This document shows, piece by piece, positions 1 through 9,752 of a stretch of 64,000 nt of DNA. The translations under genes and the position numbers were made by a program. This DNA is from Bdellovibrionales bacterium (lineage in GTDB: Bacteria > Bdellovibrionota > Bdellovibrionia > Bdellovibrionales > Bdellovibrionaceae): positions 24,242 to 88,241 of the forward strand of contig JANMPT010000117.1 of the NCBI GenBank assembly GCA_031370005.1, in the 5' to 3' direction. Numbering within the stretch: position 1 is the first letter of the stretch; every line of letters begins with the position of its first letter. The notes under the pieces are model-generated. The model saw only the letters and a program-made list of their open reading frames with translations, had not been told where the DNA came from and did no database searches.

Positions 1-174
1 ATCAACATCGAGAATAACGACATCAAATTTTTTCTCGTCACTGGACTTCACCTTTTCGATTGCATTCAGGCCATCGAAAGCCTCTTCGACTTCAAAACGT
101 GCCGATGAGACGAGCGCCGTCTTAACTGAGAGTCTCAACCCCTGATCGTCATCGACCACTAAAACCCTAAGCAT
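1..174 (-). CDS. Response regulator, N-terminal receiver domain (partial, runs off the window start)
   Basis: Hand translation from the ATG at 174 gives MLRVLVVDDDQGLRLSVKTALVSSARFEVEEAFDGLNAIEKVKSSDEKKFDVVILDVD, with typical receiver motifs (VLVVDDD, A-x-DG, DVVILD). It overlaps the kinase stop codon. Not in the ORF track. Confidence 0.93.
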   Translation of the reverse strand, partial: MLRVLVVDDDQGLRLSVKTALVSSARFEVEEAFDGLNAIEKVKSSDEKKFDVVILDVD

Positions 175-2045: not shown

Positions 2046-2180
2046 CTAGTTGTCAGTTGCCAAGATATCGCCACCGACAGGAGGACATGGGTTGCCACCG
2101 TTGCCGTGACCAAAACTCGCAGTTTGTGTTGTTAGCGGTTTTAGTTTTTTAATGTGTTTTTTCTTGAGTTTTTCCATCAT
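2046..2180 (-). CDS. Putative RiPP precursor peptide, 44 aa (MMEKLKKKHIKKLKPLTTQTASFGHGNGGNPCPPVGGDILATDN)
   Basis: Hand translation. GGGAGAG RBS just upstream of ATGATG. Overlaps the 3' end of the rSAM gene and fills the gap to the kinase start. Basic KHIKKLKPL leader and a Gly/Asn/Pro-rich core with one Cys. Confidence 0.78.
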   Translation of the reverse strand: MMEKLKKKHIKKLKPLTTQTASFGHGNGGNPCPPVGGDILATDN

Positions 2181-3492
2181 CTTCTCTCCCGCGACACTGC
2201 TCATAATAGACCAGCGTTAAAGCCACCATAAATCTTGTTCGCTCACAAAATTGCGAGTTTTTAATATTTTTATTACCTGAACCATGCTTGTGAACAAACA
2301 TACAACCGCCACCGCACAAAAATCTAGCCCAGCAGTTTTCACACTTATTTGCCTCAAGAATTGGCTTTTGATAAGCCTCTAAAGTTTTTTCGTTGAGTTC
2401 AGTGCCTTGACCGACTTGCTCTTTTTTGTCGTTTACATCCCAAGGGCACGTATAGATCTGATTGCGGGCATCGATCATTAAAAAAGATTTTCCCGCACCA
2501 CAGTAGTTTTCTGTCCGTCGCTGTTGATCCAAAGATTGAAAGTGCTGTTCAAAAATTCGAATTTTCCTTAAAGCGCTCTCGCCACCTTTAGTGAAAGCAG
2601 AAGCCGCTAGCTTCGTCATTTGGCTCATGTACTCGACAGTTGCGCGGGGATTGTTCTCAGAGACCGAAAAAGAAAAATCATAACTATCGACATCGAATTT
2701 GGAGTAAAACTCGTAAGCCTTTTCAAGCTCCATGTTATTGCTGTCAAATACGCCATGGATCAAGATATGGCTAAACTCCATTTTGCGAGCGAGGAGCCTT
2801 TCAAGACCAGCAACGATCATTGCTGTGGGGGAAGTGCCATTTTTAGTTGGGCGCATAATATCGTTGATCTCAGGAGGACCATCAAGACTGATGGTTACGG
2901 AGGCTTTCATGCTTGCTAAGATATCGAGGTTTTTATCTGTCAGTAATGTGCCATTGGTGATGATGGTGTAATTCACAGTGCGCTCAGGGGCGACTTCAGC
3001 AACATATTTTGCTATCAAGGCAAGGCCTTCGGCATAAAGCAAGGGCTCTCCGCCTAAGAAGCTGATGTTAAAGCTGACGTTTGGTGGCAAACGATCGAGA
3101 AAAAATTTAAGTTGAGGCAAAGTTTTCTCAATGGAGATCTTGGCAATCGTATCGCCAAAAGTTCCATCTCCGCCGGCAGCGCAGTAATTGCAATGCAGGT
3201 TGCAGATCTGAGTGACGTTCAAAGTGAGAAAGCGAATCACGGAATTGATTTTGCTAATTTTTACATCGGGGTTATTTTCAACATCCCAGGATTTAAGCTC
3301 TGTAAGTGCTTCATTTATTTTTTGCGATTGAATGACTTCTGGGGCAGCAGAGTTGAGTAAAGTCGTAGGAGACATGTTTAGCCAAGTAGACTCAGAAATT
3401 TGCGCCACTTCCATATTGCGCGCGTGGAAAGCCAAAAGCGCTCCCGCTTCCGATTTTAGCGCTAAAATGTCATTATAGCGTCGCAATTCCAT
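2149..3492 (-). CDS. Radical SAM/SPASM domain protein, probable peptide maturase
   Basis: CxxxCxxC motif (CNLHCNYC), GGEPLL, ITNGTLL, ISLDGP. SPASM cysteines: CGAG...YTCPW...CENCWARFLCGGGC...C. The ~85-aa N-terminal extension is compatible with an RRE. Confidence 0.93.
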   Translation of the reverse strand: MELRRYNDILALKSEAGALLAFHARNMEVAQISESTWLNMSPTTLLNSAAPEVIQSQKINEALTELKSWDVENNPDVKISKINSVIRFLTLNVTQICNLHCNYCAAGGDGTFGDTIAKISIEKTLPQLKFFLDRLPPNVSFNISFLGGEPLLYAEGLALIAKYVAEVAPERTVNYTIITNGTLLTDKNLDILASMKASVTISLDGPPEINDIMRPTKNGTSPTAMIVAGLERLLARKMEFSHILIHGVFDSNNMELEKAYEFYSKFDVDSYDFSFSVSENNPRATVEYMSQMTKLAASAFTKGGESALRKIRIFEQHFQSLDQQRRTENYCGAGKSFLMIDARNQIYTCPWDVNDKKEQVGQGTELNEKTLEAYQKPILEANKCENCWARFLCGGGCMFVHKHGSGNKNIKNSQFCERTRFMVALTLVYYEQCRGREDDGKTQEKTH

Positions 3493-3543
3493 TGAGCTTT
3501 CCCCAGTGTCTTTTTGACACTAATAATTCCATGGGCTTAAATG

Positions 3544-3560
3544 TGCAATTAGGGGGCCAG
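3544..3560 (-). promoter_or_regulatory. Sigma-54 (-24/-12) promoter upstream of the rSAM gene
   Basis: Minus strand reads CTGGCCCCCTAATTGCA, i.e. GG-N10-GC with TGGC and TTGCA, about 50 nt before the ATG. Confidence 0.7.
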
Positions 3561-3672
3561 TTTTAATTTTGTCACCACAAATAAAAACTTAATAAAAACA
3601 TATAGTTACATATTCATCTGAAGAAGTAAACCAGGCCTCGGTAGAGCCACAATGTAACTATTTCGTTATTGT

Positions 3673-5391
3673 CTAGAGTTTCAAGCACTCATGGTGGAAG
3701 TCTTTTAGAGCGGCCTCGTCATGGCTGAAGCTCACTAGAATCATCTGCGGGAAGCTTGCGATAAGGTCAAGATAGAGTTCTTTTTCAGTTTCTTTTCCAA
3801 GTGCAGAAGTGGCTTCATCCAAGAAAACTAGTTCGGGTTTTTGCAAGAAAATGCGGGCAATGGCGACTCGTTGTTGTTCGCCCGAAGACAGGCGCATAGA
3901 CCAGTTTTCTTCTTGATCAAGGGCTTGAGCCAAGTGGTTAAGTCGGGTCAGAGTCAAAACTTTTTGATACTCGAGATCACTAAAGAGGCTGCCATCCATC
4001 GGATAAGCCAAGGTCGCACGTAGACTGCCGATGGGTAGATAAGCTTTTTGGGTGAGGGCAAGGCGATGGCTTTCTTTGGGAATTCGCACATGGCCTGAAA
4101 TATAAGGCCAAATGCCATTCATACTCCGAAGCAGAGAAGTTTTTCCTTTGCCGGAGGCGGCCGTGATCAGAATCCGTTTTCCTGGCGTGAGTTGCAAGCT
4201 CAGTGCCGTAAGCAGGCTTTGATGTTCGGGCGTCATCACACTTAAGTTTTCTATTTCATATGAACCCGTAGTTATCTGAACACTTTGTGTGACAGTTTTG
4301 TGGCGAAGTTTACTGTTTTCCTCAAGCGAAAGAAGGAAGCCTCCAAGACGAACGATGACGGAGTGAAGGCGCGCGATCTTAGCATACATATCGACAAAAA
4401 CGGAGACGGATCCTTGAACTTGGCCAAAGGCACTACTGATCTGAAAGAGCTGCCCCAATGTGATTTCACGAGTAAAAACCTTCGGTGAGGCCACAATGAA
4501 TGGAAAAATATATGCTAGCTGACCATAGATATTGGTTGTCACGATAAGCTTCTTCTGACGAGAGATCAATTTCTTGAAATTTCCCACGACCTGAAAGAAC
4601 TTGGTCGAGAGTTTTTGTTTCTCGACGCGTTCACCGTTAAGGAGAGCAATGCTTTCGCTGTTCTCACGAAGTCGCACCAGGAGATAACGGAAGTCAGCTT
4701 CGAGCTTTTGTTGCATAAAATTGATTTTTGAGAGGGGGCTGCCAATTTTATGAACGACCCAGGTGCCAATGACGGCATACAACAGACAGATCCACACCAA
4801 GTAGCGATGAATCTCAATGTCATAACCCATCATATTTGTGAACTTGATTGAGCTTGAAAGTCCCCACAGAATACCAATGAAAGAAACAAAGGTGATGAAC
4901 TCTCGCAAGATTTTTTCTGAAATTTCTAGGCTCAAGTCCGTCAGCTCGTGAATATCATCTGAGAGCCGTTGATCGGGATTGTCATTATTATTGGTGGTGA
5001 TATGCCAGTAGTAGAAGTTTTTTTCTGAAAGCCAGTGGGTGAGATTTTTTTCGGTGACCCATTTCCTCCAATTGATTCCCAGGCTTTGTAGAACATAGTA
5101 CTTGTAAGCCATAATGACCGAATAAGAGAGCGCAATAATGAAAAACCGGCGGAGCTGGTGGAAGAACTCTTCTTTATTGAGATTTTGAAGGGCGTCGTAA
5201 AATGCTTGATTCCAACGATTGAGTAAAACTAGGCTGTAAACCATTCCGAGAATTAATAACAAGGTTAGCAACAGCAGACCCCGCGCCCTCCAACGATTTT
5301 CGGAGCGGGTCCAATATGGAAGCACAAGCTCTTTTAGAACTATTCGGATCGAATGCCATTTCTTGGTGCTTTTCAGCTTTTGCGAGCCCAT
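3673..5391 (-). CDS. ABC transporter, fused permease/ATPase of the SbmA/BacA-YddA (ABCD-like) type
   Basis: WNQAFYDALQ, NPDQRLSDD, EAA-like EADFRYLLVRLRENSESIAL, Walker A variant AASGKGKT, signature LSSGEQQR, Walker B VFLDEATSAL. Confidence 0.9.
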   Translation of the reverse strand: MGSQKLKSTKKWHSIRIVLKELVLPYWTRSENRWRARGLLLLTLLLILGMVYSLVLLNRWNQAFYDALQNLNKEEFFHQLRRFFIIALSYSVIMAYKYYVLQSLGINWRKWVTEKNLTHWLSEKNFYYWHITTNNNDNPDQRLSDDIHELTDLSLEISEKILREFITFVSFIGILWGLSSSIKFTNMMGYDIEIHRYLVWICLLYAVIGTWVVHKIGSPLSKINFMQQKLEADFRYLLVRLRENSESIALLNGERVEKQKLSTKFFQVVGNFKKLISRQKKLIVTTNIYGQLAYIFPFIVASPKVFTREITLGQLFQISSAFGQVQGSVSVFVDMYAKIARLHSVIVRLGGFLLSLEENSKLRHKTVTQSVQITTGSYEIENLSVMTPEHQSLLTALSLQLTPGKRILITAASGKGKTSLLRSMNGIWPYISGHVRIPKESHRLALTQKAYLPIGSLRATLAYPMDGSLFSDLEYQKVLTLTRLNHLAQALDQEENWSMRLSSGEQQRVAIARIFLQKPELVFLDEATSALGKETEKELYLDLIASFPQMILVSFSHDEAALKDFHHECLKL

Positions 5392-5554: not shown

Positions 5555-6535
5555 ATGTCTTTAACCATGAAGTACTGGGGAGTAAGAGGCTCGCTTCCAT
5601 CCTCGCCATCGCCATCCGATTGGACCAACCATATTGAAGGACTGCTTCGCGGGTTTTTCAATGCTGGATTGCGTGATGCTACTCAGGTTTCCAAGTATAT
5701 TGACTCCTTAGGCGCTGCACATCTTGGCGGTTATGGCGCGGCAACAACATGTGTAGAAGTTAAGAGTGCAAAAAATCGTATTATCATCGATGGTGGCAGT
5801 GGTATTCGCTCCTTGAGTGAACAGATCATGAGTGGAAAAGCAGGGACGAGCAAAGGACCTTTTCATATTTTCATGACTCACTTTCACTGGGATCATGTGA
5901 TCGGCTTGCCATTTTTTACTCCTCACTTTGTCCCAGGCGTTCAAATTCATTACTACGCAGTCCAACCAGAGCTTGAGAAATTGATTCGTGGGGTTTTTGC
6001 AAAACCATATTTTCCAGTACCTTTTGAGTCCCTTGCCTCAAAAGTTCATTTCCATATTTTGGAGCCAAGAAAAACGATCGAACTCGATGATATGAAGATT
6101 ACACCCTATCAGCTTGATCATCCAGACCCTTGCTGGGGCTTCCGTGTGGATTGTGGTGGTAAAGCCTATGCACACTGCGTGGATACAGAAGGAACTCGGG
6201 TTTCCCGTGAAGAGTTGGGGAATGATCTACCACTCTATCAAGGGATTGATTTGATGTACTATGATGCTCAATACACCTTTCCAGAGCTCGCAGAAAAAGC
6301 GAACTGGGGTCATAGTGCTGCGCAAGTGGGGCTCGACGTCGCCTTTCGCGAAGGTATCAAGCATGTTCTTTTTGCCCATCACGATCCTGGAGCGACGATT
6401 CAACAGCTCCAAGAGCTAAAACGTCAAACCCTTGAGTATTATGACTGGCGCTTAAGCGTGGCTAAAGAAAATGCCGAGTCACTTAGCTCTGTTCAATGGG
6501 ACTTTGCCTACGAAGGCCTCACTGTAAAACTTTAG
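5555..6535 (+). CDS. MBL-fold metallo-hydrolase
   Basis: YWGVRGS start, THFHWDH metal motif, DAQY, WGHS, HHDP. Confidence 0.88.
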   Translation: MSLTMKYWGVRGSLPSSPSPSDWTNHIEGLLRGFFNAGLRDATQVSKYIDSLGAAHLGGYGAATTCVEVKSAKNRIIIDGGSGIRSLSEQIMSGKAGTSKGPFHIFMTHFHWDHVIGLPFFTPHFVPGVQIHYYAVQPELEKLIRGVFAKPYFPVPFESLASKVHFHILEPRKTIELDDMKITPYQLDHPDPCWGFRVDCGGKAYAHCVDTEGTRVSREELGNDLPLYQGIDLMYYDAQYTFPELAEKANWGHSAAQVGLDVAFREGIKHVLFAHHDPGATIQQLQELKRQTLEYYDWRLSVAKENAESLSSVQWDFAYEGLTVKL

Positions 6536-6659: not shown

Positions 6660-7019
6660 ATGTCTAGTTTATTGAAGTTAAATCGAAAGAGAACCCCACC
6701 CTATGATGGGATTAAAATGGCCTCTGAGCTCGTTCAGAAGCTTGAGTCTGAAATAGCTTTGTATCAGGTTTACCTTTTTGGATCAGCGGCAACTAACGAG
6801 CACACGCTGGATTCGGATTTAGATCTTCTTGTTATTGTTGATGACACTTCTGATATTAAAAAAGTGTATAAAATTGTACAGCGCCCATTTTTTTCTTCAG
6901 TAGCGGTTGATTGGATAGTCAAATCAAAAGCTGAGTTTTCGAAAATGAAAGATATCGGTGGGGTTTGTTTTGTTGCGTTTCACCAAGGTAAGGAAATTAA
7001 TTTAAATGGCTCAAAATAA
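6660..7019 (+). CDS. Minimal nucleotidyltransferase (MNT) antitoxin-like protein
   Basis: YLFGSAA...DSDLDLLVIV motif. Overlaps the downstream HEPN gene. Confidence 0.88.
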   Translation: MSSLLKLNRKRTPPYDGIKMASELVQKLESEIALYQVYLFGSAATNEHTLDSDLDLLVIVDDTSDIKKVYKIVQRPFFSSVAVDWIVKSKAEFSKMKDIGGVCFVAFHQGKEINLNGSK

Positions 7020-7404
7020 GAGCGTTTTATTTAAAAAAGAATACGCGAAAGAACTTTTAAAGATTGCTGTCGGCGATTTGAAAACGGCCAAGGCCCTTAT
7101 TGAATCCCCAGATCCTGGAAGGCCAGAAAATATCCTCTATATGATTCAACAATCAGTAGAGAAGGCCGTGAAAGTGGTCCTTATTTCAAAACAAATTCCA
7201 TTTCCTCTTGTGCATGATTTGGGAATTCTGATTGCTTTGTTGTCGACGGCAGACTACCCCCCAGGGGGATTTGATTTAACCGCATTAAATCCATACTCAA
7301 CAATTCGTCGTTATGAGACTGGGGAAATTCCTTTAGATAACGAAGAAATTCAAGGGGCTTACTTGGCCGCCGAATTAGTTATTGCATGGTCTTCGAAGTA
7401 CTAG
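7006..7404 (+). CDS. HEPN domain protein
   Basis: QQSVEKAVK, HDLGIL and RRYE motifs. Paired with the MNT gene. Confidence 0.85.
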   Translation: MAQNKSVLFKKEYAKELLKIAVGDLKTAKALIESPDPGRPENILYMIQQSVEKAVKVVLISKQIPFPLVHDLGILIALLSTADYPPGGFDLTALNPYSTIRRYETGEIPLDNEEIQGAYLAAELVIAWSSKY

Positions 7405-7418
7405 ATTAATGAATTGAT

Positions 7419-9752
7419 TTAGAACCCGAAGGCTCCGGGCTCTGTACCCTTTTTGAAAATTAACTCAACGCTCATTGGTTGTTTCAGATCTGCGGGCTGA
7501 ACGGCATTCATTTCACGTAGTTTGTTTTCGCCGAAGGTGACTTTTACAGTGTCCGCTGGCCAAGGGAAGTCTTCGATAGGATCCTCTGCGGTGGCGCGCT
7601 TCATGAAGGCCGTCCAAATTGGGGCGGCACCACTGGCGCCTGTGAGTTTGTTGGCGGTGCTTGTGTCATATCCAACCCATACGATAGTTGTACGATAAGG
7701 TGTAAAACCTGAGAACCACACATCGCGACTATCGGAAGTAGTCCCCGTTTTTCCAGCAGCAGGGCGAGTAAAACCGCTTGCGCTGACGTATTTGCCTGTG
7801 CCGAAAAGAAGGGTCTGCTTCATCATGCCGACGAGGCTAGCCACTGCTATGGGGTCCTGCACTTGCTCAGCATGTGGAGTGAAAAGAAAGATCTGTTCAC
7901 CCTTTGCATTTTCAACTTTGTGAACAAAGCTGAGATCCGTTTTTTGACCCATTTTCGAGAGGCTTAAGTAAGCCTGCAAAACCTCTTTGGGGTAAAGCTC
8001 AAAGGCTCCCAGGACCATGGAAGGCACGGGTTTTAAGGGCGAGGTCACGCCCAAAGACCGAGTGATATTGATAATTTTTTCGAGTCCGACCTCGAGTCCA
8101 AGGGCTGCCGTTGGAATATTCAAAGAGTTTTCCAAGGCAAAGAACATGGGCACGACACCAAAGGACTCGTTGCCGTAATTACTTGGAGACCAGGTTTGTC
8201 CCTCATATCTAATTGTAAATTTCTCGTCTTTCAGAGGTGAGATAGGAGTGAAGTCTTTGCCATTTTTATCTTTGGACTCCAGTGCTGCCAAGTAGACAAA
8301 AGGCTTCATTGTTGAGCCCACTTGGCGGTGGCCATCGATGGCGCGATTGAACTGAGTCTGGCGATAGTTACGGCCGCCCACAGCGACTTGAATAAGCCCA
8401 GTGGCCGCGTCTGCAGAAAGAATGACTCCTTCAAGAGTTTGGCCTTTTTCTTTTTGCGATTTGATGATTTTATTTTCTTTTTCGAGTTTCTCTAGATGGT
8501 TTTTTAAGGCCTCTTGGGCAAATTGCTGGGATTCAAGATCCATTGCAGTATAGATTTTTGCGCCAACAATTTCAATATTCTGCGCCTGTAATTGTTTGCG
8601 AACTGCATCTAGATAATAAGGCGCTGTTTCTGTTGCAAGACGTGGCTGAGCTGCAGGTAAGGGCTCTTTTTTTGCGGACTCAGCATCGGCGGCAGTGATA
8701 AAGTTGTGCTCAATCATTTTGTCTAAGACTAAGTTGCGGCGGCCAAAAGCTTTTACCGGCTGCCTAAATGGGCTGTAGACGCCGGGACCGTTTACAATAG
8801 CAGCAAGTAAAGAGCATTCGCTTAAATTGAGTGCGGAGATTTGTTTGTTGAAGTAATACTTTGCGGCGGCCCCAAAGCCACGAACCTGGAAGGGGCCATT
8901 TTGCCCCATGTAGATGATGTTGAGATAGGTTTCTAGAATCTGGTCTTTACTGAATTTAGACTCCAGCATATAGGCCATGATAAATTCTTGAAACTTGCGC
9001 TTGAGGGTCTTCTCGCTAGTTAGAAAATAGTTTTTAACTAGCTGCTGGGTAATTGTGCTGCCACCTTGGGCGGCGCGACCGGAGGTGAGATTCTTAATTA
9101 GAGCCCTGAGAATGCTTCGATAGTTGACCCCTTGGTGCTCTAAAAATCTTGGATCTTCGATGGCCATTACAGCATTGGAACAAAAAGGAGGAACCATCCC
9201 TAGGGATTCTTCCTCTTGCATAATAGGCTCTATTCCGACGTATTGGGCCACCAAAGGGGCTTCCAGGTGAACTTCATTAACAACCTCAAGGGGAAATGCC
9301 TTATAAATTTGCTGAATTTGGTTTTCTGTGTTGAAGAGCATGATCCGGATGTCATTTTGCGCTTGGCCGGGGTCTACGTCCTTTTTCACAAAAGCAATGC
9401 AGATAGTAAAAATCACGTCATCTGGGATTCGAAACAGGGCATGGCACTCAGAGCTGTTAGTTTTTAAGTAATCACCTGGGAGAAGCCGTTGCTGAAAATC
9501 TCTAGAGCGATAATTTTGGCTCTGGAGCACTGCCACGGACTTATCCACATTTTGGAGTGAGGGAGTATGGAAACGATATGGGGCGGCATAGTATTCTGTC
9601 GGCAGGAGTATTCGCTTTGCCTCAAGCTTTTGATCCATTTCTTCTGACAAGCTGAAAAAGGCGTAGGAGATAGCAGCTCCCAGAGTGATGATTGCGAGCG
9701 TCACAACGATTGTAAATAAATGGAAAATGTTCTTTAATCCTGATCGAGGCAT
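7419..9752 (-). CDS. mrcB: Class A penicillin-binding protein (PBP1B-like)
   Basis: Transglycosylase motifs EDPRFLEHQG, GGSTITQQLVKN, RKFQE. Transpeptidase motifs SxxK (STMK), SxN (SLN), KTG. Confidence 0.9.
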   Translation of the reverse strand: MPRSGLKNIFHLFTIVVTLAIITLGAAISYAFFSLSEEMDQKLEAKRILLPTEYYAAPYRFHTPSLQNVDKSVAVLQSQNYRSRDFQQRLLPGDYLKTNSSECHALFRIPDDVIFTICIAFVKKDVDPGQAQNDIRIMLFNTENQIQQIYKAFPLEVVNEVHLEAPLVAQYVGIEPIMQEEESLGMVPPFCSNAVMAIEDPRFLEHQGVNYRSILRALIKNLTSGRAAQGGSTITQQLVKNYFLTSEKTLKRKFQEFIMAYMLESKFSKDQILETYLNIIYMGQNGPFQVRGFGAAAKYYFNKQISALNLSECSLLAAIVNGPGVYSPFRQPVKAFGRRNLVLDKMIEHNFITAADAESAKKEPLPAAQPRLATETAPYYLDAVRKQLQAQNIEIVGAKIYTAMDLESQQFAQEALKNHLEKLEKENKIIKSQKEKGQTLEGVILSADAATGLIQVAVGGRNYRQTQFNRAIDGHRQVGSTMKPFVYLAALESKDKNGKDFTPISPLKDEKFTIRYEGQTWSPSNYGNESFGVVPMFFALENSLNIPTAALGLEVGLEKIINITRSLGVTSPLKPVPSMVLGAFELYPKEVLQAYLSLSKMGQKTDLSFVHKVENAKGEQIFLFTPHAEQVQDPIAVASLVGMMKQTLLFGTGKYVSASGFTRPAAGKTGTTSDSRDVWFSGFTPYRTTIVWVGYDTSTANKLTGASGAAPIWTAFMKRATAEDPIEDFPWPADTVKVTFGENKLREMNAVQPADLKQPMSVELIFKKGTEPGAFGF

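Follow-up and report, generated by a model that had tools for sequence, protein, structure and literature searches.

A stretch of 64,000 nucleotides from a Bdellovibrionales bacterium (GCA_031370005.1, contig JANMPT010000117.1; hereafter the window) encodes a short peptide next to a radical S-adenosylmethionine (rSAM)/SPASM maturase, and the two form the first half of a sigma-54 operon that continues with a CHASE2 sensor kinase and its activator. That context, which is the main point, was overlooked in the original prediction made from the letters of the window. In related genomes the enzyme and the peptide move together with the sensor half of the kinase, as a single block, relative to the kinase core and the activator. 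We consider it fairly probable that the cell's own cyclic peptide acts on its cognate kinase at the outer half, closing a sigma-54 feedback loop inside prey.

Inheritance of the enzyme, the peptide and the sensor

Co-inheritance was assessed at the level of the genus with 45 loci. Five genomes of the genus g10 whose peptides carry a CxPL-x(x)-T core form one deep clade on the rSAM tree (support 1.0) and on the CHASE2 tree (0.997), and the same five occupy two separate places on the tree of the kinase core plus activator. Compared with locus L123, these genomes share 50-55% identity in the enzyme and 38-42% in the sensor, against 86-91% in the kinase core and 93-95% in the activator. Between loci L210 and L206 identity is 20-60% for kinase residues 1-360, against 90-100% beyond them and 94-100% in the activator, the break at about residue 360 being sharp. 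In approximately unbiased (AU) tests, run on 36 of the 45 loci with groups named after the trees had been seen, the backbone rejected the CxPL-x(x)-T clade (p 1e-9), and the pair L210 plus L206, which the backbone groups, was rejected by both the sensor (7e-8) and the enzyme (9e-115). Strongly supported splits across the 45 loci conflict in 0/29 cases between rSAM and CHASE2, 6/29 between rSAM and activator, 3/20 between CHASE2 and kinase core and 0/8 between core and activator.

A replicate free of the enzyme is provided by loci L145 and L169, which have activators of 99% identity, sensors of 37% identity and different Cys-less peptides; L145 and L170, with 90% identity in the activator and 73% in the sensor, share a peptide type. 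Among the 25 closest pairs, the 22 that are peptide-less have sensor identities of 55-98%. The pattern of block exchange matches that of the polymorphic comQXP blocks (PMC4408185; papers are cited here by PMC accession).

Organization and control of the operon

The kinase gene begins 1 nt past the peptide stop codon and adjoins it in 106 of the 107 loci with at least 800 bp of downstream sequence. A fold search with a CHASE2 model (pLDDT 93) against 48,161 chains was uninformative, the best Z being 5.0. The activator gene overlaps the kinase 3' end; it is in place in 63 of the 67 loci with at least 2900 bp downstream and lies divergently upstream in 3 more. A sigma-54 promoter is found at most 200 bp from the rSAM start in 75 of 95 de-duplicated loci (shuffled sequences: mean 2.9, maximum 9; opposite strand: 2), and a palindromic operator is found in 70 of the 95, phased by ~10.5 bp at distances of about -112, -101, -80, -57, -24, +28, +39 and +51, with the copy at +38 to +41 recurring in orthologues. 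The operator model was trained on these same 95 loci; out of sample, among 39 kinase loci without the enzyme, it was recovered in 36 (1.9 in shuffled sequences, maximum 8), and the promoter in 25. Because both persist where the enzyme is missing, operator and promoter belong to the kinase/activator pair, and the arrangement suggests that the operon is autoregulated through its own activator acting on the operator (Table 1). An inverted repeat, TAGTTACAT...ATGTAACTA, lies at 3598-3660 of the window, its left arm overlapping the upstream operator.

RNA contigs on L123, where the ATG is at 8169, begin at 8168, 8168, 8181 and 8243 in four studies, a weak hint only, and give similarly weak indications that transcripts span the operon genes. 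A scan of G000 for further targets returned 12 promoter-operator pairs, of which its own operon ranked first (a partly circular result) and four lie within open reading frames (ORFs). The candidates, on C5, C7, C54, C67 and C117, include several secreted or outer-membrane proteins, an extracytoplasmic function (ECF) sigma factor and one product that we take to be a DUF4360-like protein. Searching five genomes for the exact promoter and operator patterns gave 10 matches, compared with 3 in reversed controls, a number too small for a regulon to be defined.

Table 1. Positions of operon features within the window
Feature	Position	Strand	Remark
REC-sigma54 AAA+-Fis HTH activator gene, 507 aa, start only	1..174	-	Continues into G000:C13:22892; orthologue of Bd3360
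CHASE2-HisKA-HATPase_c sensor kinase gene, 625 aa	167..2044	-	Orthologue of Bd3359
Precursor peptide gene, 44 aa	2046..2180	-	Orthologue of HD100 Bd3358; conserved start probably 2177
Core G29-x-x-C32-x-P34-V35-G36	2073..2096	-	Family G-x-x-C-x-P-[VTLSI]
Leader motif H9-P15	2136..2156	-	Presumed RRE-binding strand; family H-[IV]-K-K-[VIL]-K-P
Radical SAM/SPASM maturase gene, 447 aa	2149..3492	-	Orthologue of HD100 Bd3357
Ribosome-binding site of peptide gene, GGGAGAG	2184..2190	-	Within rSAM 3' end; read from sequence
Second operator copy, 38 bp below promoter start	3505..3521	-	In 5' leader; candidate
Sigma-54 (-24/-12) promoter, GG-N10-GC	3544..3560	-	Predicted
Upstream palindromic operator, RGKGNCA-N3-TGNCMCY	3643..3659	-	100 bp above promoter; candidate activator site

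The precursor peptide and its family

The original prediction had proposed a 44-aa ORF with its own GGGAGAG ribosome-binding site, overlapping the rSAM gene, and the window reads exactly so. The site lies 3 nt from the ATG at 2180 and 6 nt from a second ATG at 2177; as same-genus orthologues retain the second Met, the real product is probably of 43 aa and starts at 2177. The 32-nt overlap with the rSAM 3' end is particular to this genome, since in relatives the rSAM stop codon falls 12 codons earlier and a spacer of ~70 bp precedes the peptide gene. Among six same-genus genes, divided into segments anchored on conserved motifs, the ratio of nonsynonymous to synonymous polymorphism (pN/pS) is lowest in the leader (0.015) and highest in the linker (0.28), with the core at 0.059, which indicates that the ORF is a real gene under purifying selection, including on its core as had been proposed for examination. 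It was described as unannotated, which holds for the gene track of this window; in strain HD100 the orthologue is annotated as the hypothetical Bd3358.

The family was assembled from 110 loci: 30 of relatives, among whose 61 genomes 40 have the enzyme, and 80 named ones, 79 of them labelled as Bdellovibrionota groups and one as Streptomyces. A peptide with leader and Cys follows the enzyme in 106 of the 110 by script; three of the misses lie within 138 bp of a contig end and the fourth, L088, was recovered separately, so that a one-Cys peptide stands beside the rSAM orthologue in all 107 loci with room downstream. The peptide filter demanded a Cys with Pro one or two residues later (or one known exception), and the Cys and Pro counts are therefore partly true by construction. 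In 94 distinct peptides the leader positions are occupied by H in 77, [IV] in 94, K in 83, K in 78, [VIL] in 85, K in 60 and P in 70; by comparison with CteB and CteA (PMC8326336) this stretch would form the strand that binds the RiPP (a peptide made on the ribosome and modified after translation) recognition element (RRE) of the maturase. A variable linker leads to the core, in which Gly at -3 occurs in 59 peptides, Pro at +2 in 90 and V, T, L, S or I at +3 in 85 (V25, T20, L16, S14, I10). Position +4 is the final residue in 37 of the 94 (Arg 13, Lys 10, Gly 3), so that C-x-P-x-R/K terminates 23; among the 54 with longer tails it is Gly in 45, or 48 overall, and three peptides stop at +3. These findings support the view that the peptide is a precursor of the adjacent RRE-bearing enzyme, with the single Cys as its likely site.

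The peptide matches no named precursor family, as originally proposed: the window peptide has no NCBIfam match at E<=10, and a scan of 20 family peptides returned one, that of L106 to the SCIFF leader at E=0.1. The suggested likeness of the KHIK leader to SCIFF thus stands as plausible, if faint; that to QhpC was covered by the same profile scan. Asp or Glu at +4, as in the CX3D/E motif, is found in just 5 of the 94, each peptide having one Cys and not six, and the conserved aromatic-X-X core motif of triceptides and three-residue cyclophanes is absent. A profile of the peptide family against PDB sequences gave two chance matches and did not recover CteA.

Some loci depart from the simple arrangement. 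Two tandem precursor genes with differing cores lie between enzyme and kinase at L012:2794-3063 and in L080 downstream of 8308, and L021 and L071 have an extra ORF of ~70 aa with an aromatic-rich tail between enzyme and peptide. One metagenome-assembled genome holds two cassettes, L037 and L045, with CKPLGL and CIPVQ cores, through duplication or bin mixing. A clade of L090, L093, L127, L129 and L130 has C-P-E-[LIR] cores with Glu at +2, for which the chemistry may differ.

The maturase and its probable product

The CxxxCxxC motif (C97/C101/C104) and SPASM cysteines noted in the original prediction are both present. Seven of the latter (C331, C349, C384, C387, C393, C397 and C416) are invariant among 25 aligned orthologues and align to those of CteB; no eighth is conserved in the same alignment. 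The N-terminal extension had been proposed to be an RRE, and the predicted model (pLDDT 88) agrees with this in aligning full-length with CteB, RRE included, over 453-463 columns (TM 0.77), residues 1-71 forming three strands plus helices in RRE-like manner. A family profile searched against PDB sequences places CteB first (1e-45) and anSME at 1e-16, and a fold search with the model returns CteB at the top and anSME among the top folds. All NCBIfam cut-offs are missed (PapB 157/340 bits, SCIFF maturase 129/425, QhpD 119/453, anSME 89/349), the best scores being those of the PapB, then Nif11, SCIFF, CcpM and QhpD maturases.

The seven-Cys arrangement of CteB leaves an open iron that is thought to bind the substrate Cys, and in anSME, as in SuiB and PqqE, the auxiliary clusters are fully ligated (PMC8326336). 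By analogy with CteB, the maturase would have an open site on auxiliary cluster I, from which it follows that a Cys thioether is a likely product, and the likeliest. The acceptor would most likely be the residue at +3 (V/T/L/S/I), with Pro at +2, the residue at +4 and Gly at -3 as alternatives, because +3 exists in all peptides and is aliphatic even in the four that lack Pro at +2; it is the sole non-Pro downstream position both present and chemically constrained throughout. The four-residue ring that would result has precedent in streptosactin (PMC9389541), and the varied side chains at +3 and +4 are compatible with a sactipeptide thioether from sulphur to the alpha carbon.

At six catalytic-site positions defined from PMC10288494, F112/F152/T186/S210/H363/Q364 of CteB correspond to A105/L146/I178/S202/P350/W351 of the maturase, I178 being T or V in some orthologues, so that the family profile is A-L-[ITV]-S-P-W against F-F-T-S-H-Q. 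The residues of StsB (Y, T, I, S, K, L), the one sactisynthase compared, are shared at 2/6. As this active site differs from those of characterized thioether synthases, the ring chemistry may be new. A His-Arg pair of PapB, modelled as holding a carboxylate (PMC10739248), is replaced here by Pro-Trp. PapB joins Cys to a C-terminal Gly, and not to a terminal L-Ala, Lys, Phe, Asn, Ile or Gln (PMC12373016), and its rejection of such terminal residues weakens the case for a PapB-like link to the terminal Arg or Lys of the peptides.

Distribution and enzyme-less loci

Genomes that carry the enzyme number 43 of 44 in genus g10, 66 of 67 in the family and 98 of 201 in the order; among those 201, the kinase sensor is present in 141. 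Just two genomes outside the order scored for the enzyme in a sample of 351 from the phylum. One of these cassettes, L124 (G109) at 613-2968, comprises a more PapB-like enzyme, a leader-plus-Cys peptide without Pro, an inserted gene and a CHASE2 gene; it shares the promoter and operator of the family and lies back-to-back with divergent multiheme cytochrome genes. In a tree built to place the L124 enzyme relative to the family, its long branch took no resolved position. On the kinase plus activator tree enzyme-bearing and enzyme-less loci are intermixed, which implies repeated loss or gain of the enzyme.

A CxP peptide was found in 0 of 39 enzyme-less loci; Cys and enzyme go together, which again points to the Cys as the likely site of modification. 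The slot of these 39 loci holds a Cys-less short ORF in 7, a signal-peptide-like ORF in 1 and none in 31. The Cys-less ORFs, between promoter and kinase, are mostly Lys-rich and most have an AGGAG-type site; one of them, L140:4231-4356, encodes a 42-aa peptide with a duplicated N-G..K-P-P-F motif in an enzyme-less member of the family. The product of the signal-peptide-like ORF (L171:4521-4646), whose N-terminus was judged by eye, has a CxxC near its end. In family f6, kinase loci without a peptide (L150, L152, L154, L157, L162, L163, L167, L168, L173, L174 and L176-L178) have a lipoprotein-like gene of 280-400 aa immediately above their promoter, and its product could be a substitute sensor partner.

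Expression and fitness of the orthologous genes

The HD100 orthologue of the maturase is CAE78160.1, a 427-aa protein annotated as 'heme biosynthesis'. The gene order in that strain is Bd3357 (1284 nt), an 8-nt gap, the 117-nt hypothetical Bd3358, the kinase Bd3359 and the regulator Bd3360 (PMC3627812); this 8-nt gap is found again in the B. bacteriovorus locus L038, whose peptide has 38 aa. Bd3357-3360 are all among the 240 'predatosome' genes, up at 30 min of predation (fold changes 1.6, 2.0-2.2, 2.1-2.2 and 3.0) and absent from the set for prey-independent growth, and Bd3359 and Bd3360 are named there as predatory sensor genes (PMC2797640). RNA sequencing gives growth-phase rises from 0.7 to 41, 2.6 to 26, 1.3 to 34 and 4.4 to 88 reads per kilobase per million, to be read with the limits that the peptide has 1 versus 3 reads, that three of the genes are classed as 'silent' and that most housekeeping genes rise too (PMC3627812).

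In pooled transposon sequencing (Tn-seq) of strain 109J, where loci were assigned by the gene order TolB-rSAM-kinase-regulator-siderophore protein-LspA, the fitness W is 0.57-0.80 for the enzyme, 2.05-2.45 for the kinase and 1.4-1.95 for flanking genes, the regulator being entered as ND; the enzyme value exceeds the authors' flag of 0.5, the mutant being mildly unfit and the kinase mutant fitter (PMC6561027).

Proposed mechanism and alternatives

The reading that we favour is that of a two-component cassette that signals to itself and whose specificity types are interchangeable. Sequence and conservation show a sigma-54 promoter with a phased operator that drives the rSAM enzyme, the peptide, the CHASE2 kinase and the NtrC-type activator, and binding of the activator to the operator would make the operon self-regulating. 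The RRE is envisaged to grip the HIKKxKP leader and the open auxiliary cluster to bind the single Cys, upon which the enzyme would close one small thioether ring (-2 Da). Because enzyme, peptide and sensor are co-inherited, the matured peptide is proposed to act on the CHASE2 domain or the membrane helices of the cognate kinase and not on the kinase core; as to the sign of this effect, the Tn-seq data lean towards restraint. More speculatively, given that induction follows prey entry, the peptide could build up in the sealed bdelloplast and report confinement. A bolder version, possible and held here tentatively, is a pherotyped pheromone system in a Gram-negative bacterium, in which an rSAM-cyclised peptide with a new kind of thioether ring, C-x-P-x, is the CHASE2 ligand and incompatible types are exchanged by recombination; the sigma-54 loop would then tell Bdellovibrio that it is sealed in prey, or is sharing it with kin.

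Several observations weigh against peptide action on the sensor. Conflicts between the sensor and core trees occur also in the enzyme-less set (2/17 and 3/17); in addition, a divergent stretch with conserved sequence on either side would move as a unit whether or not its parts were functionally coupled. In order-wide parsimony the core residues of the peptide fit the sensor tree no better than the backbone, with 8 versus 9, 21 versus 23, 24 versus 26, 25 versus 24 and 45 versus 45 changes. Of the 141 genomes carrying the kinase/activator pair ~43 lack the enzyme, and the slot of 31 of 39 enzyme-less loci is peptide-free. The peptide is devoid of a signal sequence, and neither a transporter nor a protease is a recurrent neighbour in 78 long loci. 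At four of six positions the catalytic-site residues of the maturase are unlike those of CteB. The opposite Tn-seq signs speak against a plain activating autoinducer, which predicts like signs; they fit inhibitory feedback, or read-through from the transposon.

That the peptide is a mere output (a toxin, a cofactor or a prey-directed effector), with the kinase sensing a prey or envelope cue and the block hitch-hiking, appears unlikely to us. Such an account draws on the kinase/activator pair persisting with promoter and operator in the peptide-free loci and on the differing fitness signs of enzyme and kinase mutants; a prey cue alone would explain induction on prey entry, and SCIFF-type and streptococcal rSAM peptides are often signalling outputs (PMC8326336, PMC9389541). 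However, sensor type and peptide type change together in two separate lineages, of which one lacks the enzyme, a Cys-less peptide is retained in the slot after enzyme loss on several branches, and the neighbours in the 78 long loci include no immunity or export gene. Less likely again is intracellular feedback, for which MgrB is the model, where an unexported peptide would bind the membrane helices of its kinase from the cytoplasm and the oxygen-labile rSAM enzyme would set the state of the peptide, the two together reporting low oxygen or Fe-S status within prey. The want of a recurrent exporter or protease in those loci suits this idea, as do the extent of the swapped block, which takes in the N-terminal tail and membrane helices to about residue 360, the opposite Tn-seq signs, which fit an inhibitor, and the cytochrome genes beside the distant cassette L124; a private signal would nevertheless hardly explain allelic specificity types, and the slot of L171 has its signal-peptide-bearing ORF, a single case judged by eye.

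The same signalling could also rest on other chemistry. Conversion of Cys to formylglycine (-18 Da) in CxPx(R/K/G) by an anSME-like reaction, or another Cys reaction that forms no crosslink, is in our view improbable; formylglycine is compatible with either a signalling or an output role. The C-x-P-x-R/K ending of 23 peptides resembles the sulfatase motif CxPxR, anSME is among the top folds and the catalytic-site profile is unlike CteB, but anSME clusters are fully Cys-ligated (PMC8326336), against the seven conserved SPASM cysteines here, an RRE is present, the anSME score is 89 bits against a cut-off of 349, and position +4 is Gly in 48 of the 94 peptides, absent in 3 and a terminal Arg in only 13. 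The chemistry of the original prediction, an aromatic three-residue crosslink at F-G-H or H-G-N or a PapB-type thioether from Cys to Asp or Asn, is very improbable. The window peptide does offer F23, H25, N27, N30 and D38, and PapB is the best NCBIfam score at 157 bits. Against this, residue 25 reads H/A/P/H/S/P within the genus, no aromatic is among the seven commonest residues at any of positions -8 to -1 in the 94 peptides, and no aromatic, Asp or Asn position is conserved; Asp at +6 (15/94) and Asn at -2 (11/94) do not make a family rule, many peptides end at +3 or +4, and the carboxylate-binding pair of PapB is Pro-Trp here.

Neighbouring genes

Directly above the promoter, at 3673-5391 (-), lies a gene for an ABC_membrane_2/SbmA-BacA-like ABC transporter. 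SbmA-type proteins import peptides, and a lineage-specific link to the operon is possible; as a dedicated exporter or core part the gene was rejected, being confined to 7 same-genus loci and lying above the promoter. A metallo-beta-lactamase-fold hydrolase at 5555-6535 (+) is near the operon in 48 of the 78 long loci, and its 109J orthologue, assigned by gene order, is entered as ND in the Tn-seq data, as is the regulator. A nucleotidyltransferase and HEPN pair at 6660-7404 (+) is a probable MNT-HEPN toxin-antitoxin module. The PBP1b-like transglycosylase/transpeptidase gene at 7419-9752 (-) is near the operon in 53 of the 78 loci and immediately precedes several enzyme-less kinase loci.

Relation to known systems and significance

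The maturase shares a fused RRE, an rSAM domain and a seven-Cys SPASM domain with the enzymes of SCIFF/thermocellin (CteB/CteA; PDB 5WGG/5WHY) and PapB/freyrasin. CteB is the best match by structure and profile, both leaders are basic and beta-strand-like, and SCIFFs have been reported to act in quorum sensing (PMC8326336). Unlike the SCIFF and PapB systems, however, the present one has one Cys in place of six, no CX3D motif, other catalytic residues, scores below the family cut-offs and a dedicated kinase and sigma-54 activator encoded with it. Streptosactin (GggB), with its four-residue sactionine rings, differs in enzyme lineage, in having more than the single ring expected here and in operon context, while anSME shares the SPASM fold and differs by its eighth Cys, by the RRE and free peptide substrate found here, and by the low hidden Markov model score.

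In its layout the operon follows Bacillus comQXPA, with the same order of modifying enzyme, peptide, kinase and regulator and no Cys-thiolactone in either; in comQXPA a polymorphic block of enzyme, peptide and receptor defines pherotypes (PMC4408185). It differs in that ComQ is not an rSAM enzyme, and here there are a CHASE2 sensor, a sigma-54 enhancer-binding regulator and a Gram-negative host, in which signalling would be the proposed role. Staphylococcal agr (AgrBDCA) has the same four-gene layout, and its Cys plus four residues recurs in 37 of the 94 peptides; the agr ring is a thiolactone, whereas the ring here would be a radical thioether. Neither AgrB nor another peptidase/exporter was found in the present loci, and the regulator is not of the LytTR type. 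The agr system exerts positive feedback on its own operon (PMC8895600). Processing enzymes of the ComQ or AgrB type and LytTR or NarL regulators are replaced here by the rSAM enzyme and the sigma-54 activator. The system would work like comQXPA and agr and has an enzyme like CteB, yet belongs to neither group: it misses the cut-offs and differs in precursor pattern, in active-site residues, in its processing enzyme and in the class of regulator. Our literature search, which took in few subscription journals or preprint supplements, turned up no paper that treats a Bdellovibrio RiPP or this operon, apart from the expression data of PMC2797640 and one line on Bd3359 in PMC3526173, and a genome-mining table could list the family; one supplementary file of PMC10288494, a dataset that may extend beyond that file, has no Bdellovibrio entry. 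No described CHASE2 ligand was found in the same search.

It has yet to be explained how Bdellovibrio senses prey entry and changes its programme, and this is the point at which Bd3357-3360 are induced in the genetically tractable strain HD100. A gene mis-annotated as 'heme biosynthesis' and a hypothetical of 38 aa there become parts of a testable circuit. Peptide signalling in the style of agr and comQXPA has been described as a Gram-positive mode (PMC8895600). If the peptide is indeed the ligand, such signalling would have been rebuilt from other parts in a Gram-negative predator, and CHASE2 domains would gain a ligand together with natural specificity pairs for tests of cross-talk.

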